Part shown: in pieces, positions 2,210-33,913 of the stretch | Layout of the letters: each line of letters opens with the position of its first letter | How positions within the stretch are numbered: position 1 is the stretch's first letter | NCBI GenBank assembly: GCA_964587725.1 | Contig: CAZPLO010000001.1 | Span: 16,327-80,326, forward strand | Direction: 5' to 3' | DNA length: 64,000 nt | Origin: an uncultured archaeon | GTDB lineage: Archaea > Altiarchaeota > Altiarchaeia > IMC4 > SCGC-AAA252-I15 | Program-made: the position numbers and the translations under genes | The notes under the pieces: generated by a model | Databases searched by the model: none | What the model was told of the DNA's origin: nothing | Seen by the model: only the letters and a program-made list of their open reading frames with translations

Positions 2210-2623
2210 TTAAGAGACTTCAAGTATAATAGTCGCTTCACCGCCTTTCTTCAGCACCTCCACCAAGTCCCTGCCGAGGTCGCAGGCGGCCTTGTCCGCA
2301 TTTACGGCGAGGGTACGGGGGCATATGAACGCGCTCTTCCGTATGACGGCATCGGTGGGGTGCGTCAATATGAGGCCGGGGTGACCACGGGCGACGACGG
2401 TGTAGGAGACGCCACCGCATTCTACAGTCATGGTTAAGACGGCGTTTTCCGAACGCAACGCGTCCTTGAACTCCGCAGGCAGGTCCGGGAGTGATTTGTC
2501 CGCCGCAACAGCGAATATGCAGTCGCCCCGCGGCGTCAAATGCGTTTCCCGTGTGAACTCCAGCGTGGTCTCATGAAGGGACAGGACGTTCGGGTGGCCG
2601 CGGGCACGCACTTCAACCCTCAT
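2210..2623 (-). CDS. Conserved archaeal hypothetical protein (DUF371-like?)
   Basis: ORF MRVEVRARGHPNVLSLHETTLEFTRE.... The internal Met was chosen as start so that it does not overlap the RIO kinase stop. It resembles small conserved archaeal proteins of unknown function. The family assignment comes from memory only. Confidence 0.4.
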   Translation of the reverse strand: MRVEVRARGHPNVLSLHETTLEFTRETHLTPRGDCIFAVAADKSLPDLPAEFKDALRSENAVLTMTVECGGVSYTVVARGHPGLILTHPTDAVIRKSAFICPRTLAVNADKAACDLGRDLVEVLKKGGEATIILEVS

Positions 2624-4180: not shown

Positions 4181-4576
4181 ATGAAGACCGAGGAGAAAGC
4201 GGCGGTCATCGGAGTAGTGGTCGTTGTAGCCTTAGTTCTATTCCTCGGCGGAGGCGAGCAGCCCACCGCCACAACCACGACCACGGTGAGAAGGGTCACG
4301 CAGACGACGCTGATGCCGGACATACAGAACTTCAGGGAAGCCGTCGCAGGCACAGACGCCAGCGAATGCGACAAAATAGAGCGCCAGCGAATGAAGGACA
4401 TATGCATACGTGACATCGCGGTCAAAAACGACGACCTGGAGCTGTGCGGAACAATAGAGACGGAGGACCTGGCTGACCTCTGCTACTACAAGATAGCCGT
4501 GAACAGGGGAGACGGCGGAGTCTGCGGCAGCATAGCCAACGAGTTCGTGAGAAACAGCTGTCTCGACAAGACGTAA
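4181..4576 (+). CDS. Small secreted/membrane-anchored Cys-repeat protein
   Basis: N-terminal hydrophobic helix (VIGVVVVVALVLFLGG), Thr stretch, then two copies of a roughly 20-aa motif C(I/Y)xxIAVxxxDxxxCG.I. It is paralogous to 19381..19704. Confidence 0.5.
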   Translation: MKTEEKAAVIGVVVVVALVLFLGGGEQPTATTTTTVRRVTQTTLMPDIQNFREAVAGTDASECDKIERQRMKDICIRDIAVKNDDLELCGTIETEDLADLCYYKIAVNRGDGGVCGSIANEFVRNSCLDKT

Positions 4577-4577: not shown

Positions 4578-6059
4578 TCACTCGGCGGAGTTGTTCATGC
4601 CTTTTATCTCAGATATCACCCTCTTGGGGTTCCGGTGATATTTCTGGAAGAAGTTCTGGACTGCGTCGTTGTCGCGTATCCCCTTCGCCATCATGTACTG
4701 CAGCACCTTTTCGCGGATGAGGAGTTCAGTGTTCAACCGCTTCTTGGTGATGCCGCAGTCCTTGGCTATCTTCTCCGTCAACAATATGGGGTAGTCGGTG
4801 CGCTTGACCTGGTCGCTGTTGATGTCGTAGTAGAAGATGTCGCCCAGCTGCACCACCTCCCCTTCGACGCCAGACACCTCCGAAACCTGCGTGATCCTCC
4901 TCATCATACCGCGCTTCCGGTCGAATATCCGGTTCATCACCACAATCAAATTCAACAGGGGAATCATGCGTATGGGAACGTTCATGGGCTCGTCCATCAG
5001 CCGGATGGTGGTCTCGCGGGAGTTGTTGGCGTGCAGCGTGCACATGCTCCCGTCCAATCCGATGTCCATGGCCACGAACAACGTCTCAGCCTCCTGCCCC
5101 CTCACCTCGCCGACGATGACGCGGTCGGGCCGCATGCGGAGGCTGTTTTTCAGGAGACTATGCATGCTTAATCTGTGGCTCAAATCTGTTACGGTAGGGG
5201 ATGCCTCCAGCGGCACCCAGTTCTCTATGAACTCGAAGTTAAGCTCCAACGTGTCCTCAACCGTAACCACCCGCTCCGTCTTCGGAATGAACATGGCGAG
5301 GGCGTTCAACAACGTCGTCTTCCCTGAGCCCGCGCCGCCCGCAATCAGCAAATCCACGGGCGACAGCCCGAACCCCTCCACGCACACCCACAGGAACGCC
5401 GCCAGCTCCGAGCTCATGCTCCCCAACTCGATGAGGTCTAATATGTTATAGGGGGTCTTCTTGAACTTCCGTATAGTCACCGCCGGCCCGTAGGGGGCTG
5501 CGGGAGGGATGGCCACGTTCGCCCGGCTGCCGTCGGGCATGTGCGCGTCCAGCAGCGGACTCTCCTCGTTCAGTTCGCGGCCGACGTAGTTGGCGAGCCA
5601 GTGTATCAGATCCTCCAGCGGCTCATGGGATTCGAAGTTTACGTTGGTCACGCACATCCCGTGCTTGCGGTGGACGACGAACACGGGGTTGTTGACGCCG
5701 TTGACCATGATTTCCTCCAGCATCTCATCCCTCATCAACGGCCCCAGGCGGCCGTAGCCGAGGAATATGTCGTCCATCACCGTCGAAACCACGTACTCCA
5801 GGTTCTCGGCGGAAACGTTCCGGCCCTTAATCTGCTCCTTCAAATAGTTTCGGAGGAACTCCTCCTTCTCCACGCTGCTGTGTATCTTCTCCAGCTCCGC
5901 GGTAATCTTCTTGTAGTCTCCTATGAAGTTACGGGCCTCGGAGATGACCTTCTTCTCCTCCTCAGTCAGTTCAGGCGTCAACGAGATGTAGTAGGGTATC
6001 TGGTCCCCATCCCCCTCCATAATCTTCACGTTCCCGTAGGAGTCCAGCAGCTCAGGCAT
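4578..6059 (-). CDS. Type IV filament / secretion ATPase, FlaI/PilB/GspE family (orphan copy)
   Basis: Walker A LLIAGGAGSGKTTLLNAL, Asp box and Walker B (RPDRVIVGEVRG), His box (TLHANN); 493 aa. There is no adjacent platform gene. Confidence 0.85.
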   Translation of the reverse strand: MPELLDSYGNVKIMEGDGDQIPYYISLTPELTEEEKKVISEARNFIGDYKKITAELEKIHSSVEKEEFLRNYLKEQIKGRNVSAENLEYVVSTVMDDIFLGYGRLGPLMRDEMLEEIMVNGVNNPVFVVHRKHGMCVTNVNFESHEPLEDLIHWLANYVGRELNEESPLLDAHMPDGSRANVAIPPAAPYGPAVTIRKFKKTPYNILDLIELGSMSSELAAFLWVCVEGFGLSPVDLLIAGGAGSGKTTLLNALAMFIPKTERVVTVEDTLELNFEFIENWVPLEASPTVTDLSHRLSMHSLLKNSLRMRPDRVIVGEVRGQEAETLFVAMDIGLDGSMCTLHANNSRETTIRLMDEPMNVPIRMIPLLNLIVVMNRIFDRKRGMMRRITQVSEVSGVEGEVVQLGDIFYYDINSDQVKRTDYPILLTEKIAKDCGITKKRLNTELLIREKVLQYMMAKGIRDNDAVQNFFQKYHRNPKRVISEIKGMNNSAE

Positions 6060-6089
6060 CAGTAAACTATTATGTCCCGCGAATAAAAA

Positions 6090-6911
6090 CTACAAGCGGG
6101 TGCGTGACAGCATGTCCTCGACTTCGCCGTCGTCAAACCCTATCAGCGGATGATACACCGGCACATCCTTCTTCCGCATGCTGACGTCCTCCACCGACGC
6201 AGGAGACACCAGCCCCAGGGAGCACTGGAGTGCTTCCTCCAGTGAACCGTAGACTTTCACGCCGGGGTTGCTGTAGTAACTGAGTTTCACAGCGTATTCC
6301 TTCGGACCCAGCAGGTTTATCAGGCAGCCGCGGCGCATCATCATCCACGCAGCCAACGCACCCCTTCGGGTGTTTACTTCCGCAGCCAGCGGACCCTGGG
6401 TCCCATACGGGAGGCCTCCGAATCCATCGTATGATGCGGTGTGCACGTATGCGGTGTCGGATTTCACCTCCACCCCCACCGTCACATCCGGGTTCGACAG
6501 ATCAACGGGGTTCCCGTATTCTTCCTGGATGCGGGCGCCCAGCATACTCTCCAACTCCCTGCTCGACCTCCCGTAATCCCTTGACCTGCGGACCCTAACA
6601 GCGAAGGAGCCGTCCAGGCCTCTGAACTGTTCGACAACGGATTCAGCCAGTTTCCGAGGGTCGGAGTCGACTTCGACAGCGGGGCTGACCGACTTAACCC
6701 CGAAGACTTCTGCAACCCGTTTGGCGGCCTTATCGGCTTCCGGGGACTTCAGGTATATGCGGTGCCTCTTTGTCAGAATCTTAGCCTCTAAGCCGGAGGA
6801 GTCGAGTGCGTGGCGTACGTTGCCTACCAGTTGTCGGGTGAACTGCCGGCGCACGTAGCCGCTCTTCAGAAAAATCTCGCCGTAACGGACTATGACTGTG
6901 TCGCAGTCCAT
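6090..6911 (-). CDS. ThiI-like THUMP-domain protein lacking a canonical PP-loop
   Basis: The N-terminus IVRYGEIFLKSGYVRRQF is the ThiI/THUMP signature. A C-terminal ...RPLIGFDDGEV-like element is also ThiI-like. The expected SGGxDS PP-loop is replaced by ...TRRGALAAWMMMRRG..., and the protein is about 100 aa shorter than ThiI. Confidence 0.6.
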   Translation of the reverse strand: MDCDTVIVRYGEIFLKSGYVRRQFTRQLVGNVRHALDSSGLEAKILTKRHRIYLKSPEADKAAKRVAEVFGVKSVSPAVEVDSDPRKLAESVVEQFRGLDGSFAVRVRRSRDYGRSSRELESMLGARIQEEYGNPVDLSNPDVTVGVEVKSDTAYVHTASYDGFGGLPYGTQGPLAAEVNTRRGALAAWMMMRRGCLINLLGPKEYAVKLSYYSNPGVKVYGSLEEALQCSLGLVSPASVEDVSMRKKDVPVYHPLIGFDDGEVEDMLSRTRL

Positions 6912-6917
6912 CGTGTT

Positions 6918-7265
6918 TCAGCCGCCCGTCGGTGGCTGCAGCATCCCCTGGATTTCGGAGCGCATCTGGTTGAGTTTCTCGGCTAGCTTCTTCTCCTGCT
7001 TCTCCAGCACCTTCAGCTTAGCGGAGGCGGTGTCCTTCTCGTCTCCCAGGTACTTGAGGCCGTCGTCTTTGTTGGTTTCCACCATCACCGGCCCCACCAT
7101 ACGGTACACCTTACCCTGCTGGAGTTTGTCCAGCTCCTTCCGGGCATTCTCCAAGTCCGTGCTCTGCAGCATCAGCTGTTGTTTCTGCACCGCAATCATC
7201 TGAAGCTGGTTCTGGAGGTTCTGGAACTGCGCCAGCTTATCCTGCACCTGCTGTGGAACATCCAT
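6918..7265 (-). CDS. pfdB: Prefoldin beta subunit
   Basis: 115-aa coiled-coil protein with QQ/LQ-rich helices flanking a central beta hairpin (KVYRMVGPVMVE), typical of prefoldin beta; it sits at the conserved position after pcc1/rpoP. Confidence 0.85.
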   Translation of the reverse strand: MDVPQQVQDKLAQFQNLQNQLQMIAVQKQQLMLQSTDLENARKELDKLQQGKVYRMVGPVMVETNKDDGLKYLGDEKDTASAKLKVLEKQEKKLAEKLNQMRSEIQGMLQPPTGG

Positions 7266-7287
7266 TGCCTCAATACATAAGGAGAGA

Positions 7288-7361
7288 GGGTATAAAAGGG
7301 GGGAGGGAGGAGTATAAGATATTCAGAAAAAAGTTTAAACAGTTTAAAATAAAGTTTAAAC
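7288..7361 (-). promoter_or_regulatory. pcc1-pfdB intergenic region: oligo-T terminator-like stretch, three AGTTTAAA(C) direct repeats, TATA-like box for pfdB
   Basis: The minus strand reads GTTTAAACTTTATTTTAAACTGTTTAAACTTTTTTCTGAAT...CCTTTTATACCC, located about 25-35 nt upstream of the pfdB ATG at 7265. Confidence 0.4.
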
Positions 7362-7597
7362 TATTTTGACTCCGTGAGTTTCAGGCACATGTCGAGCCAC
7401 CGTATGTAGGTGTTGGCGGCGGCCCGCATCGCATGGAGGTCCCCGGCCTTCGCATTGAGTACGATTTCGCAGTCTTCATAGGAGAGGCTGACTTCGCTGC
7501 GCTGGTAGGCGTCGGACTCCGCCTCCGGCTTAATCGACTGCAGGACTGCTTCGGCGGCTTCCACTGGAACCTTCACCCTGACAGTGAGTGTGTTCAT
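7361..7597 (-). CDS. pcc1: KEOPS complex subunit Pcc1
   Basis: 78-aa protein between rpoP and pfdB, the conserved superoperon position of Pcc1. The layout is a small alpha/beta protein (VRVKVPVEAAEAV...). Confidence 0.65.
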   Translation of the reverse strand: MNTLTVRVKVPVEAAEAVLQSIKPEAESDAYQRSEVSLSYEDCEIVLNAKAGDLHAMRAAANTYIRWLDMCLKLTESK

Positions 7598-7746
7598 CTC
7601 GCGATGACGGTCTTGGTTATGTTTTCGGGGCGCTTTTTAATCCAGATGTTGCTCCTCTTCTCAGTGCAGCTGTTGCACTTCATCTTGTTCCGCGCCAGCT
7701 CCTCGTACTCGTATTCCGCACCGCACTCTATGCATACGTAGGTCAT
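7594..7746 (-). CDS. rpoP: DNA-directed RNA polymerase subunit P (Rpo12/RpoP)
   Basis: Internal ATG of track ORF 7594..7869. The 49-aa Zn-ribbon protein is MTYVCIECGAEYEYEE...KCNSCT (CxxC..CxxC). It overlaps the rpl37ae stop by 4 nt. Confidence 0.8.
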   Translation of the reverse strand: MTYVCIECGAEYEYEELARNKMKCNSCTEKRSNIWIKKRPENITKTVIAR

Positions 7747-7991
7747 TGCTCCTCCTCCGCCGTCACCCGGCGGACAACGGGTACGTGGGAGCCGCCCGTG
7801 AACGTGTATCCGCAGGTCCGGCACATCCAGACGCCCGCGGAAACCCGCTTCAGCTTCCCCCTGCTGCATGTGGGGCAGCCGCTGGCCTTCCTCCGGTCAA
7901 CCTCCACCTTAACGGCTTCGTTCCGGAGTTTCCGGCCTACGCGGGTGCCGTAGCGGCCCATGCTCCCGACCTTGCGTGTGTGACTGAACAT
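7743..7991 (-). CDS. rpl37ae: Ribosomal protein L37ae (eL43)
   Basis: GRYGTRVGRKLRNEAVKVE...CPTCSRGKLKRVSAGVWMCRTCGYTFTGG is the classic L37ae Zn-ribbon. Confidence 0.9.
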   Translation of the reverse strand: MFSHTRKVGSMGRYGTRVGRKLRNEAVKVEVDRRKASGCPTCSRGKLKRVSAGVWMCRTCGYTFTGGSHVPVVRRVTAEEEQ

Positions 7992-8060: not shown

Positions 8061-8837
8061 TTATTTCTCCATCACAGACCGTATCTCCTTGCCCCTCTTG
8101 AAGGCTGTGTCGACGCACGACTTCGCCTCGTCGACGGTGAAGGAGCCTGTCCCGCCCTTCTGCAACGCGTTCAGCGTGTCCGTGGTGGTTACCGTCAGAC
8201 GCGCGTCCATCGCGTACTCTTCGTCGGTGGTCGGGTCAAGTATTATCTTGTCCCGGATCTTGTGGAAGGTCAGCGGCACGGGCGTCGACTCCATGGGGAT
8301 TTTACCGTCCCATTCCCCGCGCACGGCCCTGCCGTCCTCCAATTTCGGCATCCTCGAATCCAACAATGCTGCTGCTGCGGATATGCCGCAGGCGTCGATT
8401 AGGTTGCCGTCGTTGTTGAGTATGTGGATGTCCAAGAACAGAATCCACACCTTCCCTTCTTCGATGAAGAGTTTCTTGAAGTCTATGCAGCCTGACTCCC
8501 GTATTCCTCGGTCAACGACACGCGCCAACTCAATCGCGTGTTCACGCGGAGGCCCCGACTCGAAATACGGTGACGCAATCGGCCGCAGCTCCGCTGCCGT
8601 CGTCATGACGCCGGAGTCCGGCGAGTCCGGGTAGGGTTCCGCGACGTCCATGCTGACGCCCGTCAACACCTCGGTGTCGCCGAGTTTCACATATGCGGAG
8701 CCGCTGGACTTCTCCCCGACGTAGCCCTTTGTTATCTCCAACGGCCTTATTTCGTCGAGTTTCCGGCCGTCAACCCTCTTGCCCTCCGACACGAGGTTGG
8801 CTATGTAGTCTCTCTTGAGATAGTATTCTATTTTCAT
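8061..8837 (-). CDS. rrp42: Exosome complex component Rrp42 (RNase PH-like, inactive subunit)
   Basis: RNase PH fold protein (...[16 protein letters not shown]...[13 protein letters not shown]...) immediately after rrp41, the conserved order. Confidence 0.85.
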
Positions 8838-9562
8838 TCCTGCACCTCCACTTCCTTAAGCGTCTTCTTCATGAGTTCGTACACCTGCATGCAGCCGTCG
8901 AACGCGAGGTCGAAGGCCTTCTCGAACTCTTCCTGCGTCAATACGCCGTCCATCTGCAGCAGCACTACCTCCCCGGTCCTGGGCACGATCGCCAGCGGCA
9001 GGTCGCATTGTCCGAAGTTGTCCTCCTCCTTCATCAAATCGAGGATTATTTCTCCGTCCGCCTTCCCGGCCGCGCAGGCCACAACCAGGTCCCTCATGGG
9101 GATTCCCGCGTCCGCCAAAGCCAGCGACGCCGCAGTCAACCCGACGCACCGTGTGCCGGCGTCCGCCTGCAGTATCTCCACGAAGACGTCGATTGCCGCG
9201 TTCGGGTACTTGTGTGTGCGTACGACGTTGGTCAGCGCCTCGCTGCTTATCTTGCTGATTTCAACGCTTCTCCTGTCGGGGCCCGGCCGCTTGCGGTCGT
9301 CCACGCTGAACGCCGCCATATTGTAAGTCAGACGCACCGTAGCCTCCGTCGGGTTCTGGAGGCGCCGCGGATGCATCTCCCGCGGACCGTACACTCCAGC
9401 CAACACCTTGTTTTTACCCCACTCAACGTAGGCGGAGCCCTGGGCGTTCTTCAACACCCTGACCTTCATCTTTATCTCCCTAAGTTGGTCGAACTTTCGG
9501 CCGTCCAGTCTGACGCCCTTGTCTATCAACTTCATATTCGTTTCGCCACTCATTTGCATCAC
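8834..9562 (-). CDS. rrp41: Exosome complex exonuclease Rrp41 (RNase PH-like, catalytic subunit)
   Basis: ...[17 protein letters not shown]...[19 protein letters not shown]...; RNase PH signatures, 242 aa, overlapping-stop coupling with rrp4 and rrp42. Confidence 0.9.
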
Positions 9563-10218
9563 TTCTTCTTTGATTTTGAACTAAGGAACTTGGTAACCCT
9601 GTCTGTCAAGCCGGAGGTCTGGGCCTCCCGCTCCACCATCCGCAGCGCCTCCACCGCCAGCGGAAGGTTTCCGCCCTTCAGCCATATGAGGCCGTTCTGC
9701 CCCACGATGATATGAGATCGTGTATTATCACGTATCAACGTTATCATCGATCTTTTGCGGCCGATTATGCGGGGCACCCGCATGGGCTTAACCCTTATCA
9801 CGTACCCCTCCTCGAGCTTCCTGGGGCCCGTCAGCTGAGCCTCCTTCACCTCGTCAACGTACACTATCTTCGCACTCAACAAATCGCCGACAGAGTATGA
9901 CTCCTGCTCCCTGGGGCCGCGGCGGTCGTTCCTCGGCTCCCGGAGCACGCCCAGGTAGGGGCCGTCCAAGTCCACCAGGTATATGCCTCCGAGGTCGCGG
10001 TCTACCACGCCCAGTACGACGTCGCCTGACTTCGGCACGTACGCGCCGTCCGACGGTATGATGTTCACGTTCTTGCCGCTGACCCGCGCCAGCCCCCTCA
10101 CCAGAGAGTATGCGCTGTCTCCCTCGGCAATGCATTCTCCTTCGCATCTCACGCCTTCACCCAGTTTCTCCCCGGGCAACACTATCTGCCTGTCTTTCAC
10201 GTTACTCATGTTTAACAA
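9559..10218 (-). CDS. rrp4: Exosome RNA-binding cap subunit Rrp4 (S1 + KH)
   Basis: N-terminal domain + S1 ([26 protein letters not shown]) + C-terminal KH ([10 protein letters not shown]) arrangement; conserved position upstream of rrp41. Confidence 0.85.
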
Positions 10219-10915
10219 CCTTCGTCTTCACGTCGCCGTGTGTCATACTGTTAAGCCGGCTGAACAGTTCGTCCTGCATGCCAGCAGGTATCTCAATCAG
10301 CACGTACTGTTCGCCGCCAACCCAGTCCTCCTTCTTCACGTCACCGTATTCCCGGAGGGTGCTGTACATCTTCCCCGCGTACTCCGCGGGTATTTTCACG
10401 GCTATCTCGAGTTTCTCGAATTTGATTGGTATTATGGGCTTCAGCGCCTTCAGCACCTTCTCCACCTGCTCCCTCGCGCTCTTGGAAAGCAGTATCTCAA
10501 CCCGCGCCTCCTCCATCGCCGCCTCGATGCGATTGATTGGGTGGGGGGTGTTGGTCTGCGGGTTTATGGCGTTCCGCGCTATTACGGCGGCCACCTGTTT
10601 CCAGCGGTCCTCCATCATCTTCCGCCTCTGCTCGGTGGTGAGGTGGAGTTCGCCCTTGCGGAGTATCTCGTCGTATACCCCGTTCATGTCCTCGGCCTTG
10701 AACAGTTCGAGGAGGTGTTCCTCGCTGGCCTTCTCCCCCTTTTTGGCGTCCTTGAACACGTGCTCCGCGGCCAGTACGTCTTCGAGGCGGACGTCTCCGC
10801 CGCTCTTGTATTCGAGGGCCGGGTCTGGGTCCACGTATATCTCGTATGTTTCGCCGTGGGTCTTCAACCGCACTATCACGGCGTCTTCTAAACTGGTCAT
10901 GCTTCCACACTCCAT
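10202..10915 (-). CDS. sdo1: Ribosome maturation protein Sdo1/SBDS
   Basis: The N-terminal FYSH-like domain (VIVRLKTHGETYEIYVDPDPALEYKSG) and the 237-aa length match archaeal SBDS; conserved superoperon position. Confidence 0.85.
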   Translation of the reverse strand: MECGSMTSLEDAVIVRLKTHGETYEIYVDPDPALEYKSGGDVRLEDVLAAEHVFKDAKKGEKASEEHLLELFKAEDMNGVYDEILRKGELHLTTEQRRKMMEDRWKQVAAVIARNAINPQTNTPHPINRIEAAMEEARVEILLSKSAREQVEKVLKALKPIIPIKFEKLEIAVKIPAEYAGKMYSTLREYGDVKKEDWVGGEQYVLIEIPAGMQDELFSRLNSMTHGDVKTKVVKHE

Positions 10916-10952: not shown

Positions 10953-11696
10953 TTACTCCTTGGGTTCCTTACTGTCTAGTTCCTTACCCAATTCTTTAAT
11001 AGACTTCTCTATCTCCCCGGTCTGCACCGGCACGTACTTGTCCTTGACTTCGACGGTTATCATGTCGACGCTCTCCGCCTTCACCTTGCCCTCGGACACC
11101 CTGTTCAATCCTATGAGGGCGAGGTTGACCGCCTCCTGCCTGCTGACCCCGGGGCTGTACTTCTCCTCCAGCAGCTTCTCCACGTCCCGCTTCCCCATCC
11201 CTATGGCGCCCGCCATGTATTCTGTGAACGCGCCGCTGGGGTCTGTCTCGAACAGATGCGGGCGGTCGTTGACCCCAGCAACCAGCAGCGCGGTGCCGAA
11301 TGGGCGTGCGCCGCCGAACTGGGTGTAAGCCTGCTTGATATCGCACAGCTCCCTGGTTAGGCCTGCAACGTTCACGGGCTCGCTGTATACGAGACGGTGG
11401 CGCTGAGCCCTCACCCGCGCGTCTTCGACAAGACGTCGGGCGTCAGCCACCAAACCGGATGTCGCAACTGCAATGTGCTCGTCTATCTGGAATATTTTCT
11501 CGATGCTTTTGGGGACAATCAGGCTGGTTGAAACGTTTTTGTCCACAGCCAACAGCACGCCGCCACCGTACACTATTCCCACCGCCGTGGTGCCCCTTTT
11601 GACTGCTTCACGGGCGTATTCGACCTGGAATAGTCTGCCATCGGGGCTGAAAACCGTTATAGCGCGGTCGTATGCCGCAGGACCTTGAGGATACAT
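10953..11696 (-). CDS. psmA: Proteasome subunit alpha
   Basis: YDRAITVFSPDGRLFQVEYA N-terminal alpha-subunit signature; 247 aa. Confidence 0.95.
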   Translation of the reverse strand: MYPQGPAAYDRAITVFSPDGRLFQVEYAREAVKRGTTAVGIVYGGGVLLAVDKNVSTSLIVPKSIEKIFQIDEHIAVATSGLVADARRLVEDARVRAQRHRLVYSEPVNVAGLTRELCDIKQAYTQFGGARPFGTALLVAGVNDRPHLFETDPSGAFTEYMAGAIGMGKRDVEKLLEEKYSPGVSRQEAVNLALIGLNRVSEGKVKAESVDMITVEVKDKYVPVQTGEIEKSIKELGKELDSKEPKE

Positions 11697-11760: not shown

Positions 11761-12258
11761 CTACTTGAGGATGTCCCTCGCCAAGTTCAGCCGCTCTGCG
11801 ACGGATTTCCCTTCCCTGGGCCTGTAGCCCTTGGTTTCCCCCACGTAGTCGAGCAGATCGCTCACGTTCGCGCCTGTGAGGCTGGCTGCCTGGGTTACGG
11901 AGACTCCGCGGCTGTGTAGCCGGGAGGCAATCTTTATCCTGGCTTTCCCGACGAGGCCGCCTTCGAAGAACCCGTGTTCGCTGTCGAATTTATCTATTTC
12001 AGAGAGTATGCCGTCGAAATCGTGTTCCCCCAGCTTCATCACCGCCTTTTCAGCGATTTCCTCTGTCTTCTCGCGCATGTGGAGTTTTATGTAGATTTTG
12101 TGGAAGCAGTAGGTTACCATGGCGAGCTTTATCATGTCCTCGCCCTGGGTGGTGGATGCTTCGTCGCTGTAGTGGGACGCGAGCTCCCGCAGCTTCACCG
12201 AATCCCCTGATTTTATGGCCTCCGCGACTTCATCAAGCTTTTTCACTGTAAACTCCAC
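11761..12258 (-). CDS. Hypothetical protein with C-terminal HTH-like segment (165 aa)
   Basis: ORF between the eIF2B-like gene and psmA, overlapping the former by 16 nt. The C-terminal ...RGVSVTQAASLTGANVSDLLDYV... resembles a helix-turn-helix. No confident family. Confidence 0.4.
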   Translation of the reverse strand: MEFTVKKLDEVAEAIKSGDSVKLRELASHYSDEASTTQGEDMIKLAMVTYCFHKIYIKLHMREKTEEIAEKAVMKLGEHDFDGILSEIDKFDSEHGFFEGGLVGKARIKIASRLHSRGVSVTQAASLTGANVSDLLDYVGETKGYRPREGKSVAERLNLARDILK

Positions 12259-13139
12259 CCGAAACGTTCCTTTATGAGGTTGTATGCAGCCTCAGGGGGT
12301 ATTACCCCGTACTCGGTCACAATCATGTTCACGTATTCTTTCTGGGTGACGTCGAATGCTGGGTTGAACACGCCCACACCTTCTATGTCGGCGACTTCCT
12401 TGGGGTCGCGTTCCTCAATTTCTGAAATCATACCCTGCATGCTGTAGGGGGAGAACTTTATGGATTCCGTGCAGACTATGAATTCGACGCCCGCGTGCTT
12501 AGCGGTGACGGCAACCTGGCTGGTGCCTATCTTGTTTATGACGTCGCCGTTCGCGTACACGGTGTCCGCGCCCACGAACACCTTCTTCACGTCGCGGTGT
12601 AGCATGGTGTGGTATGCTGCGCCGTCCACAATCAAGGTCACATCCACCCCCGCCGCCGATAGGTCTTTGGCTGTGATGTGGCCCTGCCACCTCGGCCGCG
12701 TCTCGCATGCGTACACCTTGAACCGTTTCCCCTGCCCCCACGCACGGGACATGGTTTCGGTGACTGTGCGGCTGTTACATATCGTCAACAAAATGTCGCC
12801 GTCTTCGATGAGGTTCGCGCCTATGTCGGCGGCCTTGTCTATGGACGAGTCCAGCTGGGATATGAAGTCCGACACGTCCGCCAGCAGGGTGGCTTTGGCT
12901 ATGCTGGGGTCCTCGTCTCGGTGGGATTCAGCCAGGTGGAGGATGTAGTTGATGGCATTCGGGAGTGAAACAGCGGTGGGCCGCGCATCCCTCAAGATGT
13001 CGCCGGCCTTCACCAGCTCGTCATACGACGCGCCCTCCGAAATCCTCTCCTCCAAGGCCTTGGACGCCGAGACCGCAATCTTCAACGCGCCCCGAACCTC
13101 CATGGACCGAATCTTGCCGGCGGTGTCTTCGACGGACAT
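12243..13139 (-). CDS. eIF-2B alpha/beta/delta family protein (aIF-2B-like or ribose-1,5-bisphosphate isomerase)
   Basis: 298 aa with the family layout: N-terminal helical region, then Rossmann-like domain with ...TICNSRTV..., ...VFVGADTVYANGDVINKIGTSQVAV..., ...FIVCTESIKF.... Confidence 0.75.
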   Translation of the reverse strand: MSVEDTAGKIRSMEVRGALKIAVSASKALEERISEGASYDELVKAGDILRDARPTAVSLPNAINYILHLAESHRDEDPSIAKATLLADVSDFISQLDSSIDKAADIGANLIEDGDILLTICNSRTVTETMSRAWGQGKRFKVYACETRPRWQGHITAKDLSAAGVDVTLIVDGAAYHTMLHRDVKKVFVGADTVYANGDVINKIGTSQVAVTAKHAGVEFIVCTESIKFSPYSMQGMISEIEERDPKEVADIEGVGVFNPAFDVTQKEYVNMIVTEYGVIPPEAAYNLIKERFGWSLQ

Positions 13140-13159: not shown

Positions 13160-16100
13160 TTATAAGTCCCTGAGGCCTTTTGTCCGCGGACGCCCGCGGG
13201 AGATGGCATATGCGGCTGCGGCAGCCAATGTAAACCCGGACGCAATCAGTAATCCCAGGTAGATGAGTGCTGTAGAGGCGCCGGCTTCCGGCTGCGTAGT
13301 GGACGTTGACTCCACTGCGGCGGGTGACGGAACCTCAGCCGCCAACGCTATAGTCGATGACGTTGGATGAGACGACATCATTGTGGAGTATGTCGTCTGG
13401 GTTGGGGGGGTAGAGTGGGATGACGCTGTAGAGTAGATCGTTGAAGTAGACGACGTCGTTGTGGAGTATGTCTTCGTGGTGGTCGACTGGGTTGTAGTGG
13501 CCACGCCGACCGCCTCCACCATGCATTCCATAAGCCGGTACCCACTTTTGCTAGTCAGTATCTCGTATAAGCCGGGGGCGGAGGGCGTGAAGGATACTCT
13601 GCCCCCAGAGTCGGTTTTACCCTCAAACACGAGTTCACCACCGAGATAGATTGAAACCACAGCATTCATTATAATAGCTCCTGTTCCGCGGCCATCATCC
13701 AGGCGGACGGTGATTCCGTATGGGACGCCGACCGTCAACTCACCCGGACACGCCATGCGCAGCTCAGGCTTAACGCTCCTGCCCACGCCTCCGCCTCCGG
13801 GGGCGGGGACGCTGACAGTCAATGAATAGTTTGTGGAGTTTCCGGCGTTACCCACGGAGTCGAAGCAGGACACACGCCAAGTGTATGCACCATCGGGGAG
13901 GTTTAGGGTGAACGACTGGGTTGTGTCCTCGGAGACTGTGTCGTCGGTCTCATTCAACGGGCCATTGAGGTAGAGGCTGCAGTTCGCCACATTAGACAAT
14001 ACGTCGGAGACGTTGTACCGGAGGGTTACCGTCGCGGATTGTGTTGTGGAACCGTTGTCCGGGCCCACAAGGTTCACTGTCGGCGGCGTCGAATCCGACT
14101 TCAATGATTGATTGCTATCTCCCCAGTCGCTGAGGTTGGCGTCGTCGTATGCGAGGCAGTTCCACAGGTAAAAACCGTCTTCAAGTGTCCTGGCCCAGCC
14201 GATGGCGTTCGACAAATCAGATACGTCCGCGGTTTCGTTGGCGTGCCAGCCACTCCAGTTCCCGTACAGGGTTATGTTCACCACGACGTTGTCGTCTACG
14301 GCGGAGCAATTGAAGGTCACGTTCGAAGAAGACGAGTTGAAGCCGTCCACAGGCGCGTCCAACACGACCGTGGGGGCTGAGACGCTGACCGTCAGGTTGT
14401 ATGCGGACGAGTTCCCGACGTTGCCGACGATGTCGCTGCAGTTTATGCTCCAGTTGTATTGGCCGTTCGCCAGCACCTTGGTGAAGGATTGTGTGGTGTC
14501 TTCGGCGACGGAGTCGTCTGAATCGTTCCAGACGCCATTCAGGTAGAAGGTGCAGTTTAGGATATGGGATGTGGTGTCGGACACGTTGTATTCGAAGTCT
14601 ACAACATGGGTGGTCTGCTCCAGCGTGTCGTCTCCCGGACTCTCCAAATACACTGCAGGCGGTGTGGTGTCGAGCAGGTAAGTGTTTGTTTCAGATTTGT
14701 TGTAGTTGCCGTCGGAGTCGTTGGCGGACGCGTTCAGATAGTAGAGGTCGTCCGGCAGGTTGGTGATGTTCCAGTAGAGGGGGGTTGAGGCGGAGGAGTT
14801 GGTGGCGTGCAGGGTGGAGGAGTTGTAGAGGTATGCTGTGACGTTGATTAGGTTGTCGTCCACCGCAGACACGTTGGCTGTGACGTAGTCTCTGCTGTAG
14901 TTTCCGGCTGGCGTCGTGGGGTCGGCCAACGACACCTCCGGGGTGACCCACAGGTCCGAGAGGGGGAGGTAGTCAACGTTGTCTGGTGCTAGGGTGTGGA
15001 TTTCGTCGCAGAAGCCGTCGAACAACGTGTCGTTGCAGTTTTCGCTGTGGCCGCTGCCGTCAGGATTGAGCCAGACGTTCCCGCCCAACACGTTCCCGCC
15101 CAACACGTTAACACCGGTAGCATTTGTCGTGTTCCAGTCGTTATGGTATGTGGCGCCCGCGAACTGCGCATTGACGGTGTTGTTGAAGAGGTTGTTGTAT
15201 AAGCTGTTGTCGGGGCTGGAGTATAACATTACGCCGTAGTTGCTGTTGGCGGTGAAGTTGCAAGCGGATACGGTGTTGTTGGAGCAGTACATAAAGTACA
15301 TGCCGTATGTGTTGCGTGTTATGGAGGAGTTCACCACCGACACGTTCACGCCGTAGTCGATGCGCGCCCCGTAAGAGCCGCTGCCGTTGAAGCGAAGGTC
15401 TTCGAGCATAGGGTGGTTTGAGTTGCTCACGTACAGACAGTAGTCTTTGCAGTAGTTCATGTGGATGGAGGTGAAGTTGCAGTAGTCGGAGTACTGGACT
15501 GATATGCCGTCGTCTGAGTTGTTGTCGGCTGTGAAGCCGTCGACGACCGCGTAGTGGGAGTAGTAGAGGGTCAGCGCCTCCTGGGTGTTGCTGTCGGCTG
15601 TGAGGTTGAAGAACCTGTTTCCGAACCCGTATCGGTCGTACACGCCGTAGACGTTTTCGTCCAAGGTGACGTTACTCAAGGTGATGTTGGTGGAGTTGAG
15701 CATGTAGACGCCGTAGTATGCGTTGGTGGAGTTGGAATCCAGTATGCGGGAGTTGTTCGTCCGATACAAGAAAATGAGGTCGTCTGCGGTCATTTTCACA
15801 GTCACGTTGTCGCAGCCTATCAGGCTCAAATGGGAGTATGCTGTTCCGTAGTCGAGCAGCTGGTTGTCCGGGCAGGGATTGTATACGCCGTCGAAGTATT
15901 TTACGGGCTTGCCGTTGATGGTGTTGCTGGCATCTATGTCGTTGACGTATTCGTCGGCAACCCAGAGACCTCTGACCCTCCCCCGTAATATGCTGGTGTT
16001 CCTGAACGTGTTGTTCACGCTACTGGACAGGTAGCTTCCATAGGCGGTGTTGTTCTCCAGCCACAGGTCTGCGAGGTTGTTATATGAACTCGAATACATG

Positions 16101-18277
16101 TACAGCCCCCTTGAGTTGTCGCCCGCTGTTCCATTGAATATGTTATTGTATGAACTCGAAGACAGATAGAGGCCGTAGTATTTGTTGCCGTCTGCTGTTA
16201 CGTTGAGTAGTGTGTTGTTCATGGAATCATCCACTTCAACCCCGATACCCCAGTCACCGTATAGGCCGTGGTTGTGGCTGGAGGTTGAGTTGATGAGTTT
16301 ATTGCTGGAGCCCCCGGACAACAGGATTCCGTGTTCGGAGTTGTTGTACGTCCACACGTTCCTGACCGTGCTGTAGGCGGTCGAAGACAACAGGATTCCG
16401 CGGTTGTTGTTGGTTGCGTTCACGTACTCTATAAGGCCGCCGTAGTTCGAGGCGAAGAATATGCCTGACTTGTAGTGATGATTCGTCCCGGTTATCGGTG
16501 TTGCAGTACCCACACGGACAGTACAGTTTCTCACCCGGGTGTTGTTGTAGCCGGATGTTACACCATAGTAGTAGGTGTACAAACTGCTGTTGCCATAGTC
16601 TATTGTGTGGCCTAGGCAGTCAAGGGTGACGTTGTCCGCCTCGACAGTTATGCAAGTCTCCTCTGAGAAGACGTCGTTCAACAGATAATGTGTGGTGTCT
16701 TCCAAGGTGAGGTTCCTGCAGAAGGTGACGTTCTCCCCGGTTTCGACGTTAAATGATGTGGATGCCTCGCCCCAGCTGCCGGCGGTGTCGTTGCAGTAGA
16801 ATGTGACATTGTGGAAACCGTCCGGTACTGTGGAGTTGACATAGCCAAAGTTGAAGGCCGTGATATTCCCCATGCTCGTATTTTCTCCGCCGTCGAGGCT
16901 GAATCCGCACCAGCTCCCCTCCTTGTCCAAGGTGACGTTAAAGTACACTGTCTGGGCGGAGTAGTTGCTGTACTGCGGCGAATCTATAGTAACCACCACC
17001 GGCTCACTCCCACCCTCTAAGACTATGTCGCGGACCTCATTATCGTTGCCGGAGAACATGAAATACGTTGAGTTTGTCAGGTAGCCGGCCTTGCTCGCGT
17101 TTAAGGTGTGGTTCCAGTAGGATGCGGTACCGGAGTGGTTTATGTAGTACACCAACGCCAGCAGGTCTGTCAGGCCCCCGGAGTCCGTCAGCACCTCATA
17201 CTCCAATGTGCCGGATTCATTCCACAACCTGACCTTGGCGTCCTGCAGTTGTGACGTGCTGTTGGACACATTCACCCGCAGATACCATTTCCGGACTAAA
17301 TTACACGGCCAGTTTTCAGGCATGCCCCAATTCTGGAAGTATTCTGTCTCATAGGTTGAGTTCAGGAATGTGACGTTCGAGCACTCGGACCGCATGTACA
17401 AGTCATAGTCGCCGGAGTTCTCAACCACAATGTTACTGTAGAGGTTGTGATTTCCCTGATTCAAATACATTCCATAGTCTCCGCTGTTGTTGATGTACCC
17501 GTTGACAATGCTTATCCTGTCTGAGCGGTCGTTGTAGAAGCCAGTCCAGGAACCACCCTGTATTTCAACGCCTTCAAAGTGGTTGTCGTCTGCTAGAGAA
17601 ACATAGACTGTGGAGCCCCGGACCACCACGTCCCTGTAGACGCCGTACTCGGACCACCGGATGTACATCATCTTGCCTATGGACTCCAAGTGTTCGCCGT
17701 AGGTGTACGTCTGGTCCTCCAAGTAGTAGTTGTATGAACCGCCGCTGCCGCTGACGGTGATGTTGGTCATGTTAAGGTAGTAGACGTTGGCGTTGTTGCT
17801 GTAGACGCCGTAGTATCCGTTCGACGACAGATTCAGGTTCTGGAGCAGCGCAGACCATGTGTTGCCAACCCAGACACCAAATCGGGGGCTGGTGGTGCGG
17901 GTTGTCGTGATAAGGCAGTTCCGGACCGTGGAGTCGTTGTTATATAATTCTCCGGAGGATGGCAGGATGTAGACTCCTGAGTAGAAGGTCGAGCCGGATG
18001 ATGTCCCGTAGGTGACGGTGTTGCTCCAGCTAACACAGTCGAGTGTGACGTTGGATGCGTTTATGGTGAAGCAGGTGCCTGTTGAGGACACGGGCTGGGT
18101 GAGGCGATAGGTTTTGCCGGACTCGTTCAAGACGCGGCAGCCAGTGATGTCTTCGGTGTCTGCTGAAACGGTGGAGAGCATGAACAGTAGAGCAACGGCT
18201 GACAACACAGGATATTGTTTGACGTCCAATCCGCCACCTTTATGGATTCTACACCCCTTATTTAATTCGAGTAACAC
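13160..18277 (-). CDS. Giant (1705 aa) secreted surface protein: parallel beta-helix repeats, heavily N-glycosylatable, Thr/Ser-rich stalk, C-terminal TM anchor (S-layer/adhesin candidate)
   Basis: GTG start and a signal-peptide-like N-terminus (PVLSAVALLFMLSTVSA). Many NxS/T sequons. Repeated N.GxY.YNN..N...YN type beta-helix (pectate-lyase-like) repeats. Ig-like modules near the C-terminus. The tail is a Thr-rich stalk (TTTQSTTTKTYSTTTSSTST...), a TM (ALIYLGLLIASGFTLAAAAAYAI), then a basic end (SRGRPRTK...). Confidence 0.7.
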   Translation of the reverse strand: MLLELNKGCRIHKGGGLDVKQYPVLSAVALLFMLSTVSADTEDITGCRVLNESGKTYRLTQPVSSTGTCFTINASNVTLDCVSWSNTVTYGTSSGSTFYSGVYILPSSGELYNNDSTVRNCLITTTRTTSPRFGVWVGNTWSALLQNLNLSSNGYYGVYSNNANVYYLNMTNITVSGSGGSYNYYLEDQTYTYGEHLESIGKMMYIRWSEYGVYRDVVVRGSTVYVSLADDNHFEGVEIQGGSWTGFYNDRSDRISIVNGYINNSGDYGMYLNQGNHNLYSNIVVENSGDYDLYMRSECSNVTFLNSTYETEYFQNWGMPENWPCNLVRKWYLRVNVSNSTSQLQDAKVRLWNESGTLEYEVLTDSGGLTDLLALVYYINHSGTASYWNHTLNASKAGYLTNSTYFMFSGNDNEVRDIVLEGGSEPVVVTIDSPQYSNYSAQTVYFNVTLDKEGSWCGFSLDGGENTSMGNITAFNFGYVNSTVPDGFHNVTFYCNDTAGSWGEASTSFNVETGENVTFCRNLTLEDTTHYLLNDVFSEETCITVEADNVTLDCLGHTIDYGNSSLYTYYYGVTSGYNNTRVRNCTVRVGTATPITGTNHHYKSGIFFASNYGGLIEYVNATNNNRGILLSSTAYSTVRNVWTYNNSEHGILLSGGSSNKLINSTSSHNHGLYGDWGIGVEVDDSMNNTLLNVTADGNKYYGLYLSSSSYNNIFNGTAGDNSRGLYMYSSSYNNLADLWLENNTAYGSYLSSSVNNTFRNTSILRGRVRGLWVADEYVNDIDASNTINGKPVKYFDGVYNPCPDNQLLDYGTAYSHLSLIGCDNVTVKMTADDLIFLYRTNNSRILDSNSTNAYYGVYMLNSTNITLSNVTLDENVYGVYDRYGFGNRFFNLTADSNTQEALTLYYSHYAVVDGFTADNNSDDGISVQYSDYCNFTSIHMNYCKDYCLYVSNSNHPMLEDLRFNGSGSYGARIDYGVNVSVVNSSITRNTYGMYFMYCSNNTVSACNFTANSNYGVMLYSSPDNSLYNNLFNNTVNAQFAGATYHNDWNTTNATGVNVLGGNVLGGNVWLNPDGSGHSENCNDTLFDGFCDEIHTLAPDNVDYLPLSDLWVTPEVSLADPTTPAGNYSRDYVTANVSAVDDNLINVTAYLYNSSTLHATNSSASTPLYWNITNLPDDLYYLNASANDSDGNYNKSETNTYLLDTTPPAVYLESPGDDTLEQTTHVVDFEYNVSDTTSHILNCTFYLNGVWNDSDDSVAEDTTQSFTKVLANGQYNWSINCSDIVGNVGNSSAYNLTVSVSAPTVVLDAPVDGFNSSSSNVTFNCSAVDDNVVVNITLYGNWSGWHANETADVSDLSNAIGWARTLEDGFYLWNCLAYDDANLSDWGDSNQSLKSDSTPPTVNLVGPDNGSTTQSATVTLRYNVSDVLSNVANCSLYLNGPLNETDDTVSEDTTQSFTLNLPDGAYTWRVSCFDSVGNAGNSTNYSLTVSVPAPGGGGVGRSVKPELRMACPGELTVGVPYGITVRLDDGRGTGAIIMNAVVSIYLGGELVFEGKTDSGGRVSFTPSAPGLYEILTSKSGYRLMECMVEAVGVATTTQSTTTKTYSTTTSSTSTIYSTASSHSTPPTQTTYSTMMSSHPTSSTIALAAEVPSPAAVESTSTTQPEAGASTALIYLGLLIASGFTLAAAAAYAISRGRPRTKGLRDL

Positions 18278-25323: not shown

Positions 25324-26052
25324 CTAAGCCAAACCTCCTATGTCTATGATGAGGCCCTGGCCCGGCTCAACACGGAACGCAATCTGGGGAACAACCTGTA
25401 TCTTGCTGCGCTTGAACCGGTTCACCGCCATGTACTTCTTGGTTTCCCCTCCCAGCTCCTTCATCCCGAACTCCAGGTATATGTCCGACACCGACCGGAA
25501 GAGCGTTAACAGGCTCTTGTTCAATTGGTCGGGGTCGACGGTCATCATCACAATCTTCCCCTTGTTGGTGAGTTTCTTGAAGAACTTAATGACCTCGAAT
25601 GCTTTCTCGTCGCTGATGTTGCCCTGCACCAGCAGAAAGGATATGGTATCTATGATTATCACCGTCTTCTCGAATAGTTTCTTGGCGGACAGCAGCCTTT
25701 CAAGAAAGTCTTTCCGCAGTTTTCCTCCGCCTATGAACGGGAACATGGGTATGAACAGGAGGCGCTCGTCTATCACGTATTCGTCGACCACGTACTGGAG
25801 GGAGTCCATCTGCTCCAGGAACTCCTTCGTCGACAGTTCCGCGCTGATGTAGGTGGCGGTTGCGCCGTTAACCAGCGACGAATACAGGAGACGCTGGACC
25901 AGCAGGCTCTTGCCCATCCCGTCCTTCCCCTCTATAAGCATCAGGGAACCGTAGGGAAGGGCGCCGCCTAACTTGGTGTGCAGCATGTCCCTTTTAATCC
26001 GCATGCTCAGGAACTGGTTGTCGGATTCCTGCTCGTCTGGTTCCTCAGCCAT
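25324..26052 (-). CDS. flaH: FlaH/ArlH-like KaiC/RecA-superfamily ATPase
   Basis: Single RecA-like domain of about 240 aa with Walker A LIEGKDGMGKSLLVQ. Located immediately upstream of flaI, as in archaellum operons. Confidence 0.75.
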   Translation of the reverse strand: MAEEPDEQESDNQFLSMRIKRDMLHTKLGGALPYGSLMLIEGKDGMGKSLLVQRLLYSSLVNGATATYISAELSTKEFLEQMDSLQYVVDEYVIDERLLFIPMFPFIGGGKLRKDFLERLLSAKKLFEKTVIIIDTISFLLVQGNISDEKAFEVIKFFKKLTNKGKIVMMTVDPDQLNKSLLTLFRSVSDIYLEFGMKELGGETKKYMAVNRFKRSKIQVVPQIAFRVEPGQGLIIDIGGLA

Positions 26053-26083
26053 CCTGCGTTACAGTATTTGTAAAGGGTATATA

Positions 26084-32892: not shown

Positions 32893-33209
32893 GCCTCCGG
32901 CTTCCCCATCAGGTTGGGGCTGCGGGGTTTCTTGTAGCCTCTGTCGTGGACGCGGTAGGATTCCTCGTTCAAGCCCAGTATGCTCACCAGCTCCGAACGC
33001 GCCACCAGAAACCTGCTGTGCCCGAGGAACGTGGACAGGTAGTCGGTGGTCAGACCGTTCAGCAGGCTCTCTTTTTCGACATCGCTCATGTGCTCGACGT
33101 CCATTATGCCTAGTTTCTTCATCTCGTTAACCAGGACCAATCCCCCGGACTTGCCGGACCACTTGAACATGAACTCCAGCAGCTGTCTGCCCACCTTGGC
33201 CATCTTCAC
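32889..33209 (-). CDS. Small hypothetical protein (106 aa) coupled to the KaiC-like ATPase
   Basis: Its start overlaps the KaiC-like stop by 4 nt; no recognisable family. Confidence 0.4.
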   Translation of the reverse strand: MKMAKVGRQLLEFMFKWSGKSGGLVLVNEMKKLGIMDVEHMSDVEKESLLNGLTTDYLSTFLGHSRFLVARSELVSILGLNEESYRVHDRGYKKPRSPNLMGKPEA

Positions 33210-33913
33210 TTATACAGTACCTTCAATCCCTCCGACGATATGTCGTAGTCTACGAAGTTTTTGACGTGATTTGAGCCGCGCATCTTATGGACCTTCACCT
33301 GCCGCCCCCACTCCTCCCTGATTCGGAACAACGTGACGGAGTCGGCTAGGAAGTCCTCCATGCCGAAACGGCTGGTGTCGTTCGACGAATACGGTATCTC
33401 GGTGGTGAACACGGTGGTGATGCCCATCTTCTTCAGCGACACCATGAAACGGAACAGCTCCGCCCTGAATACTTTCTCGTCCTCGTACGCGATAGCCAGC
33501 GGCACCACGCTGTCCAACCCCAGGCGGACTGCATCGCTGTAGTTCAACTGTATGAACTCCAGCAGGTTCTCGAAGCGGAGCGGACTCTCCGGGCTCTCCA
33601 CCTCGTCGGCGGTGTTCAACGCGTTGACACGTAGCGAGGACAGGTCGAACATGGTGAGCATGTCATCGTCCACGTCCTCCAGGTCGAGGCCGACCGTTTT
33701 GCTGTCCCTTACTATGTGGTCCCTCATCTCCTCCAAGGTAATGTAAACTCCCTTCTGCCCGTACTTCACCGCCCCGTTGTAGAGAAAGTAGAGGGTGAAC
33801 AGGGTCTTCCCGGAGCCGCTGCACCCGCACAGCAGGTTTATGCTGTGGGGTATAAAGCCGCCCCCCAAAAGGTTGTCGTAGCCTTCAATGCCGGTCTTGA
33901 TTCGCTCATCCAT
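33206..33913 (-). CDS. KaiC-like / FlaH-like single-domain RecA-superfamily ATPase
   Basis: GIEGYDNLLGGGFIPHSINLLCGCSGSGKTLFTLYFLYNG (Walker A) with the KaiC/RadA-like layout; 235 aa. Confidence 0.8.
   Translation of the reverse strand: MDERIKTGIEGYDNLLGGGFIPHSINLLCGCSGSGKTLFTLYFLYNGAVKYGQKGVYITLEEMRDHIVRDSKTVGLDLEDVDDDMLTMFDLSSLRVNALNTADEVESPESPLRFENLLEFIQLNYSDAVRLGLDSVVPLAIAYEDEKVFRAELFRFMVSLKKMGITTVFTTEIPYSSNDTSRFGMEDFLADSVTLFRIREEWGRQVKVHKMRGSNHVKNFVDYDISSEGLKVLYK

Follow-up and report, generated by a model that had tools for sequence, protein, structure and literature searches.

The gene at positions 6090–6911 on the minus strand of a 64,000-nucleotide (nt) stretch of DNA from an uncultured archaeon (contig CAZPLO010000001.1; the whole stretch is called the window below) encodes a ThiI-like protein of 273 amino acids (aa). 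The protein is a PH1313-type ThiI-like protein, a new member of an already recognised class rather than a new kind. We consider it likely that it is a non-catalytic ThiI descendant that still binds tRNA, or another RNA 3′ end, through a ferredoxin-like domain at its N terminus (NFLD) and through its THUMP domain. A first-pass annotation of the window had left two options, an inactive tRNA-binding ThiI paralog or a different THUMP enzyme. The former is favoured, in the wider sense of a ThiI relative, as the elements for ATP binding and sulfur transfer are gone and the RNA-binding residues of the NFLD and THUMP domains are the most conserved.

The defining features of ThiI and TtuI are known from the structure of T. 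maritima ThiI with RNA and ATP (PMC4041423) and from work on the archaeal [4Fe-4S] TtuI (PMC9825150). Each was mapped onto the window protein by HMMER alignment to 4kr6 and by a 62-sequence alignment that included archaeal ThiI. In the T. maritima enzyme, the PP-loop S182–S187 (SGGIDS) binds the ATP phosphates, while G286, E287, N288, Q291 and Q295 of the DI-loop, together with Arg264, are further ATP-binding elements (PMC4041423). In the window protein, S-G-G-I-D-S aligns to N180-T181-R182-(gap)-R183-G184, with one residue deleted, against both T. maritima and archaeal ThiI; the SGGxDS motif is thus missing, as had been claimed, and the equivalent stretch is variable among short homologues. 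The DI-loop sequence GE..GQVASQT is replaced by SPASVEDVSMR, and the segment carrying Arg264 and the CxxC region (YTCVVCKR in archaeal ThiI) is deleted. The catalytic cysteine of ThiI lies in a C-terminal active-site loop (Cys344 of E. coli and T. maritima ThiI, Cys348 of the M. maripaludis enzyme), and the second sulfur-handling element of ThiI and TtuI is either a rhodanese domain or a set of CxxC (+C) ligands for a [4Fe-4S] cluster (PMC9825150). Going by a title cited in PMC9957541, bacterial ThiI requires its rhodanese domain for thiazole synthesis. The window protein ends nine residues after its PLIGFDDGEV element and so lacks the subdomain bearing the catalytic cysteine; its only cysteines are C3, C196 and C230, and no rhodanese domain was matched in it by Pfam. 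The motifs S.G.[DE][ST], GQ.[AS]SQ and C..C[KR]R do not occur in any of the six frames of window positions 5801–7100. The match to PF02568, the ThiI PP-loop domain, scores 13 bits against a cut-off of 20.5 bits, and that to the NCBIfam ThiI model TIGR00342 scores 137.4 bits against 264.5, with profile positions 1–201 of 373 aligned. Because the PP-loop, DI-loop, CxxC motif and catalytic cysteine are all gone, we infer from the sequence that the protein would be unable to adenylate U8 or transfer sulfur, and hence would not be a 4-thiouridine (s4U) synthetase.

What is left is a three-domain protein (Table 1) with a canonical N-terminal half, as first described, and a small third domain. The N-terminal half is basic (isoelectric point 9.0) and the third domain acidic (5.8). 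AlphaFold2, given the 62-sequence alignment as input, returned a confident model with a predicted local distance difference test score (pLDDT) of 94.8 and a predicted template-modelling score of 0.90. In this model the third domain comprises strands at residues 172–178, 196–201 and 219–221 and helices at 182–193, 204–211, 224–229 and 261–269. A Foldseek search of the PDB returned 1vbk, the structure of PH1313 from P. horikoshii, as the top match (E 5.5e-27, query-normalised template-modelling (TM) score 0.87), followed by ThiI of B. anthracis (2c5s, TM 0.79) and T. maritima (4kr7, TM 0.77). The modelled protein thus shows the fold of PH1313 and ThiI. The third domain is derived from the PP-loop pyrophosphatase (PPase) domain, truncated and stripped of its motifs, and we refer to it as the remnant domain. 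Its C-terminal PLIGFDDGEV, singled out earlier as ThiI-like, aligns with RPLIGMDKEEI of ThiI.

The other option, a THUMP enzyme of another kind (Trm11, Trm14 or Tan1, for example), was not supported. Against the methyltransferase model TIGR01177 the protein reaches 21.7 bits (cut-off 316.55), and Foldseek matches to Trm14, TrmN, Trm11 and CDAT8 (TM 0.43–0.47, E 1e-8 to 1e-11) cover the front half only; a C-terminal methyltransferase domain is thus not recognised. Trm11, Trm14, TrmN and CDAT8 share the NFLD/THUMP front end with the window protein but carry an unrelated C-terminal domain, an S-adenosylmethionine methyltransferase or a deaminase. Tan1 has two domains and is not ThiI-derived, whereas the window protein has a third domain of 113 aa and matches ThiI_fer and not Tan1.

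The pattern of conservation points to the RNA-binding module. Invariance was computed on an alignment of 35 short homologues. R9, Y10, E12, L15 and K16 of the NFLD do not vary, and conservation of R21 is 90% or more; within the THUMP domain, F103, G125, V136, L138 and P141 are invariant. T. maritima ThiI touches RNA with R10, K17 and R21 (PMC4041423), which align with R9, K16 and R21 of the window protein. Strand 102–109 and G126 of T. maritima ThiI align with F103 and G125, and its CCA loop VDVRNPD (V138/V140/P143) aligns with VDLSNPD (V136, L138, P141). In the linker that follows, G165, G166 and P168 are invariant and L167, Y169, G170 and Q172 are at least 90% conserved. P251, P255 and L256 of the C-terminal element are conserved among the short homologues. 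The invariant residues number 19 and are concentrated in the RNA-binding module, and length is constant in relatives down to 30% identity. Mean pairwise identity within the short family is 0.45 in the NFLD, 0.35 in the THUMP domain, 0.52 in the linker and first helix, and 0.24 in residues 201–273. In canonical ThiI the PPase core, at 0.45, is as conserved as the N-terminal half (0.43). Judged by these identities (0.24 for the remnant core vs 0.45 for the corresponding region of canonical ThiI), the remnant domain evolves about twice as fast, and the RNA-contacting residues make up the best-conserved part of the short family. As every well-conserved position of the remnant domain (GGLPYGTQG, LA.WMMMRRGC and P...PL.G) is common to canonical ThiI, none of them suggests a new active site. 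It is apparently in the RNA-binding module that the selected function lies, the third domain being retained as a scaffold.

By sequence, too, the top PDB match is PH1313 (1vbk, E 1.7e-29, vs 1.7e-15 and 4e-13 for bacterial ThiI). Crystallised in 2005 (PDB 1VBK), it is described in a 2023 review as a ‘ThiI-like protein’ that is missing several conserved ThiI residues and whose activity is unconfirmed, with its smaller PP-loop domain attributed to a C-terminal deletion (PMC9957541); elsewhere it is regarded as a truncated form of TtuI (PMC9825150). Like the window protein, PH1313 consists of an NFLD, a THUMP domain and a reduced Rossmann-like domain that ends before the catalytic-cysteine subdomain, and it lacks SGGxDS, having HDELSA at that site in a loop likewise one residue shorter. 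It differs in being 34 aa longer and only 28% identical by structural alignment, and the sequence alignment past residue ~200 is not significant. With ThiI and TtuI proper (the archaeal CxxC+C [4Fe-4S] class, such as M. maripaludis and P. furiosus; bacterial T. maritima 4KR6 and B. anthracis 2C5S), the window protein shares a homologous NFLD/THUMP module with equal residues for RNA contact, the linker GGLPYGTQG, LAAWMMMRRGC as first helix, the PLIG.D motif and the overall fold (TM 0.77–0.79). It differs from them in lacking the PP-loop, DI-loop, Arg264, the remaining ATP ligands, CxxC, the catalytic cysteine and any rhodanese domain, and in falling below the curated cut-offs of TIGR00342 and PF02568.

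Short forms of this kind are widespread. A search of 5.8 billion proteins yielded 373 relatives, and the top 120 of these include 35 clusters, 273–305 aa in length, none of which has the PP-loop. Equal length and equal motif losses are common to at least 35 homologue clusters. A profile search of 1.84 billion cluster representatives (clusters at 50% identity) gave 2079 matches at E <= 1e-30, and 129 of the best 150 are short (<=335 aa) and without PP-loop or CxxC. Among GTDB species representatives, short (<=335 aa) PP-less forms occur in 62 of the best 80 loci, carried by records titled Altiarchaeota, Archaeoglobaceae and Woesearchaeota and by many titled Thermoplasmata, including Methanomassiliicoccales and Methanomethylophilaceae. 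Some short forms look intermediate, with SNDINS (P0022/27/28) or SDL-NS (L015), and forms of 353 aa exist too; the intermediate-looking sequences suggest repeated decay. In a neighbour-joining tree of 189 sequences built on residues 1–198, the window protein falls in a 27-member PP-less clade adjoining the Altiarchaeota-type canonical ThiI, and PH1313 falls in another PP-less grouping of 62 members, with Thermoplasmata-, Archaeoglobaceae- and Woesearchaeota-titled loci. We also noted ThiI homologues of 372–378 aa in Aenigmarchaeota-titled records (L036 10001–11134, L037 3628–4743, L058 10001–11125), in which the PP-loop is gone (NGNCSS, TGDCGS) and the GQVASQT loop is lost, with CxxC and the C-terminal cysteine kept. 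To judge from these motifs, they might represent a separate partial degeneration in which the Fe-S cluster is kept without ATP binding.

These observations can be joined into a working model. A ThiI/TtuI descendant has kept the NFLD–THUMP module, with which ThiI clamps the acceptor stem and 3′-CCA end of tRNA, and its PP-loop pyrophosphatase domain was reduced to a small Rossmann-like scaffold. Extrapolating from ThiI structures, the protein would most likely still bind tRNA or another RNA 3′ end. Since ThiI dimerises mainly through its PP-loop pyrophosphatase domain (PMC4041423), the remnant domain would probably serve as a scaffold for dimerisation or spacing. The protein may then act as a non-catalytic RNA-binding adaptor or chaperone. 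A precedent is Tan1/THUMPD1, an NFLD and THUMP protein without a catalytic domain that delivers tRNA to the acetyltransferase Kre33/NAT10 (PMC9957541). Such a role is speculative and the likeness a functional analogy only; no NAT10 homologue or other acetyltransferase adjoins the ThiI-like gene. We further speculate, as a rather improbable extension, that PH1313-type proteins could be widespread archaeal non-catalytic adaptors or chaperones for tRNA 3′ ends. Their THUMP domain might serve as a ruler that presents or protects the acceptor stem and positions 6–10 for a partner, or the proteins might regulate 4-thiouridine formation at U8 (s4U8) by heterodimerising with ThiI; in Altiarchaeota the partner may be linked to the module of prefoldin beta and an ATPase discussed below.

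Several points weigh against a non-catalytic RNA-binding ThiI descendant as described here. The case for RNA binding by PH1313-type proteins comes by analogy from ThiI structures, and the absence of known motifs may be compatible with an unrecognised chemistry. As to a partner for an adaptor, no neighbour conserved across lineages was found. The genes near the short ThiI-like gene are lineage-specific: in Thermoplasmata-titled loci they include PolB, L15e, an aminotransferase and a GTPase, and in another group of loci ApbA, tRNA endonuclease, an MBL hydrolase and a 2-hydroxyacid dehydrogenase. The deep nodes of the tree have bootstrap values below 20, so that a single loss common to the clade of the window protein and PH1313 is not shown. 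Lastly, the repeated loss and fast evolution described below agree with weak selection on the gene no less than with an accessory role.

One alternative keeps the protein within the s4U8 machinery in trans, either as a heterodimer with canonical ThiI or TtuI, in which its NFLD–THUMP module would hold the tRNA as the partner modifies U8, or as a subunit with a regulatory or dominant-negative effect. Several homologues of ThiI are encoded in Pyrococcus genomes (PMC9957541), and the linker and first helix of the remnant are well conserved and common to ThiI. However, the PPase surface is for the most part deleted or has diverged, and no canonical thiI was found within the 64-kb window. The Altiarchaeota-type canonical ThiI, of 370–385 aa with PP-loops STGIDS, SLGIDS or SGGIDS, lies at a separate locus with the order Yip1-ThiI-DTD2-KaiC-Alba-FKBP, which is likewise not in the 64-kb window, and the canonical proteins P0041, P0018 and P0025 all come from samples or assemblies other than that of the window. 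Among the GTDB matches listed, about 4–5 Altiarchaeota-titled genomes have the short form and about 6–7 the canonical form, never both; these are metagenome-assembled genomes, which may be incomplete, and the mutual exclusion is suggestive. On balance we find a role in trans unlikely.

In the course of these comparisons, Altiarchaeota-type full-length ThiI genes (~371 aa, with the non-canonical PP-loops STGIDS and SLGIDS) in L090 (1426–3247), L014, L016, L033 and L045 were seen to overlap at their 3′ end a gene for PF04414 tRNA_deacylase (DTD2), after which come KaiC-like, Alba and FKBP genes. Searching the window with the KaiC-like neighbour of the Altiarchaeota-type ThiI surfaced three KaiC/RecA-like ATPase open reading frames (ORFs), at 25327–26058 (minus strand), 33209–33934 (minus) and 37636–38334 (plus).

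Another alternative is that the gene is an evolutionary relic, a functionless decaying ThiI gene in this lineage whose product has no selected role. It accords with the loss of all catalytic motifs and with the intermediate-looking forms, both the SNDINS and SDL-NS sequences and the Aenigmarchaeota forms without PP-loop but with CxxC. The history of the locus also speaks for it. Loci were assigned as Altiarchaeota-like by record titles and best named matches. Starting from the downstream ATPase, we compared nine full orthologue loci from metagenomes (ATPases 68–81% identical). The ThiI-like gene is present in four of the nine; in the other five (L095–L099; ATPases 68–76% identical) prefoldin beta is directly followed by the ATPase, with no remnant between. 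By ATPase identity, the five loci without the gene are interspersed among the four that have it, and all more distant loci keep it. The gene was lost from the prefoldin–ATPase position more than once, given this interspersion among relatives that keep it, or was possibly moved. Where all three genes occur, identity to the window copy is 39–57% for the ThiI-like protein, 54–70% for prefoldin beta and 61–79% for the ATPase, so that it evolves faster than both neighbours. Being cleanly missing from five relatives and faster evolving than its neighbours, the gene looks dispensable in its lineage and is not an obligate partner of the ATPase; it is an accessory gene there, lost from the locus in several close relatives. 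Against a relic stand the intact ORF and its constant length in relatives down to 30% identity, the concentration of the 19 invariant residues in the RNA-binding module, and the confidently folded model. We disfavour the relic, and give it little credence, because a functionless gene would not persist intact with invariant residues across at least 129 clusters at 50% identity.

A third possibility, which we hold to be very improbable, is an Altiarchaeota-specific two-gene module with the FlaI/GspE-like ATPase, for example one in which a secretion or pilus ATPase would be coupled to an RNA or nucleotide signal. The two genes are adjacent on the same strand, with gaps of 14–37 nt, in L003/7, L004/5, L008–L010, L019, L020 and L091–94, and the pair is kept even where both outer flanks differ (L004/5, L009, L010, L020). 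The order prefoldin beta, ThiI-like gene, ATPase recurs in L003/L007, L008, L012, L015, L092 and L094. An obligate module is weakened by the five ATPase orthologue loci without the ThiI-like gene, and no such ATPase lies near short genes in Thermoplasmata- or Archaeoglobaceae-titled loci. The ATPase may also have its own promoter: in the 30-nt spacer from the ThiI-like stop to the ATPase start (6060–6089, minus strand; TTTTTATTCGCGGGACATAATAGTTTACTG), a T-rich box, TTTTTATT, lies 22–29 nt upstream of the ATPase ATG. Two readings of this box are possible, an oligo-T terminator of the archaeal type or, for a leaderless transcript of the ATPase, a TATA box. The ATPase scores 278 bits against the NCBIfam FlaI model, vs a cut-off of 550 bits, and its best PDB match is GspE of A. 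fulgidus (2oap); no membrane partner of the T2SSF/TadC type adjoins it in any locus inspected. Our literature search returned nothing useful linking THUMP to type IV pili ATPases, or on the superoperon or DUF371.

That the gene is a canonical thiI frameshifted or truncated by a sequencing or assembly error, which the first-pass annotation had raised as a possible restoration of the PP-loop, can be practically dismissed, because no catalytic motif exists in any frame of 5801–7100, the downstream gene begins only 30 nt past the stop and an identical protein is predicted on three independently assembled contigs, and dozens of homologues have the same architecture. The ORF itself is real and uninterrupted, from an ATG start to a TAG stop, and the strings first quoted from it were all located (IVRYGEIFLKSGYVRRQF at residues 7–24, NTRRGALAAWMMMRRG at 180–195 and PLIGFDDGEV at 255–264). 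The remarked deficit of about 100 aa is real as well, the protein being ~90–120 aa shorter than archaeal ThiI (360–400 aa).

Table 1. Features of the ThiI-like gene and its neighbours, in window coordinates.
Feature	Position	Strand	Evidence or remark
ThiI-like gene, complete	6090–6911	-	coding sequence 6093–6911 plus TAG stop 6090–6092; ORF list
N-terminal region, ThiI-type ferredoxin-like (NFLD)	6684–6911	-	Pfam PF22025 ThiI_fer, residues 6–76, E 1.5e-17
RNA-binding loop VRYGEIFLKSGYVRR	6846–6890	-	residues 8–22, within region 6684–6911
THUMP domain, residues 77–160	6432–6683	-	Pfam PF02926, residues 93–156, E 3.5e-11
3′-CCA-binding-loop equivalent VDLSNPD, residues 136–142	6486–6506	-	alignment to T. 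maritima ThiI
Inter-domain linker GGLPYGTQG, residues 165–173	6393–6419	-	common to canonical ThiI; in all canonical ThiI matches
Remnant Rossmann-like domain, residues 161–273 (113 aa)	6093–6431	-	AlphaFold2 model and fold match to PH1313
PP-loop-equivalent site E178-V179-N180-T181-R182-R183-G184	6360–6380	-	alignments to 4kr6, 2c5s and archaeal ThiI
PLIGFDDGEV, residues 255–264, counterpart of ThiI RPLIGMDKEEI	6120–6149	-	alignment to ThiI
IF-2B family	12246–13139	-	
Proteasome alpha	10956–11696	-	
SBDS	10205–10915	-	
Rrp4	9562–10218	-	
Rrp41	8837–9562	-	
Rrp42	8064–8837	-	
L37Ae	7746–7991	-	
50-aa zinc ribbon, four cysteines	7597–7746	-	weak Pfam Zn_Tnp_IS91 match, below cut-off
Pcc1	7364–7597	-	
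Prefoldin beta	6918–7265	-	Pfam Prefoldin_2, E 6.2e-23
FlaI/GspE/CpaF-like secretion-superfamily ATPase, 493 aa	4578–6059	-	Pfam T2SSE, E 1.3e-35

The genes upstream of the ThiI-like gene (Table 1) follow the order of the archaeal exosome superoperon, with the ThiI-like gene at its end, and the order observed in the window agrees with the embedding in a translation and RNA-processing superoperon noted at the outset. Koonin, Wolf and Aravind are said to have described this superoperon in 2001 from comparative genomics. The 50-aa zinc ribbon between L37Ae and Pcc1 occupies the position that RpoP (Rpo12) has in this superoperon. The prefoldin beta stop and the ThiI-like start are separated by 6 nt, and the two genes are probably co-transcribed. 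The spacer between Pcc1 and prefoldin beta (7266–7360, minus strand) is AT-rich and 95 nt long, contains the palindrome GTTTAAAC twice and has a TTTATA/TATAC-like stretch; from these elements, it is possibly an internal superoperon promoter for prefoldin beta and the ThiI-like gene. No tRNA genes or Rfam families were found within the 64-kb window.

On the other side, the ATPase in Altiarchaeota-like loci stays next downstream of prefoldin beta whether or not the ThiI-like gene intervenes (L095–L099, L003, L004). A DUF371 gene (uncharacterised, MTH639-like; PDB 3cbn and 7y7n) is found in the window (2210–2623, minus strand) four genes downstream of the ATPase, as in L003, and directly after the ATPase in the Alti-2-like L004/L005 (L004 10386–10814), L009 (12380–12805) and L010. 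Convergent with the ATPase is a 131-aa ORF (4181–4576, plus strand) with an N-terminal hydrophobic segment, a Thr-rich linker, a Cys-rich C-terminal part and no Pfam match, whose position is kept in L001 and L003. Just upstream of the IF-2B-family gene, a 1705-aa ORF with a GTG start occupies 13160–18277 (minus strand).

One source gives close homologues of the window protein the label ‘thiamine biosynthesis protein ThiI’ or ‘tRNA uracil 4-sulfurtransferase’. Both labels are very unlikely to be correct, judging by sequence, because the catalytic motifs are missing, and such mis-annotation bears on predictions of s4U or thiamine capability in uncultured archaea. As a large family with a structure available since 2005, the PH1313-type proteins pose a modest open question in tRNA biology. 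To this the window copy adds only its membership, its location in the superoperon, and its fast evolution and repeated loss in its lineage.

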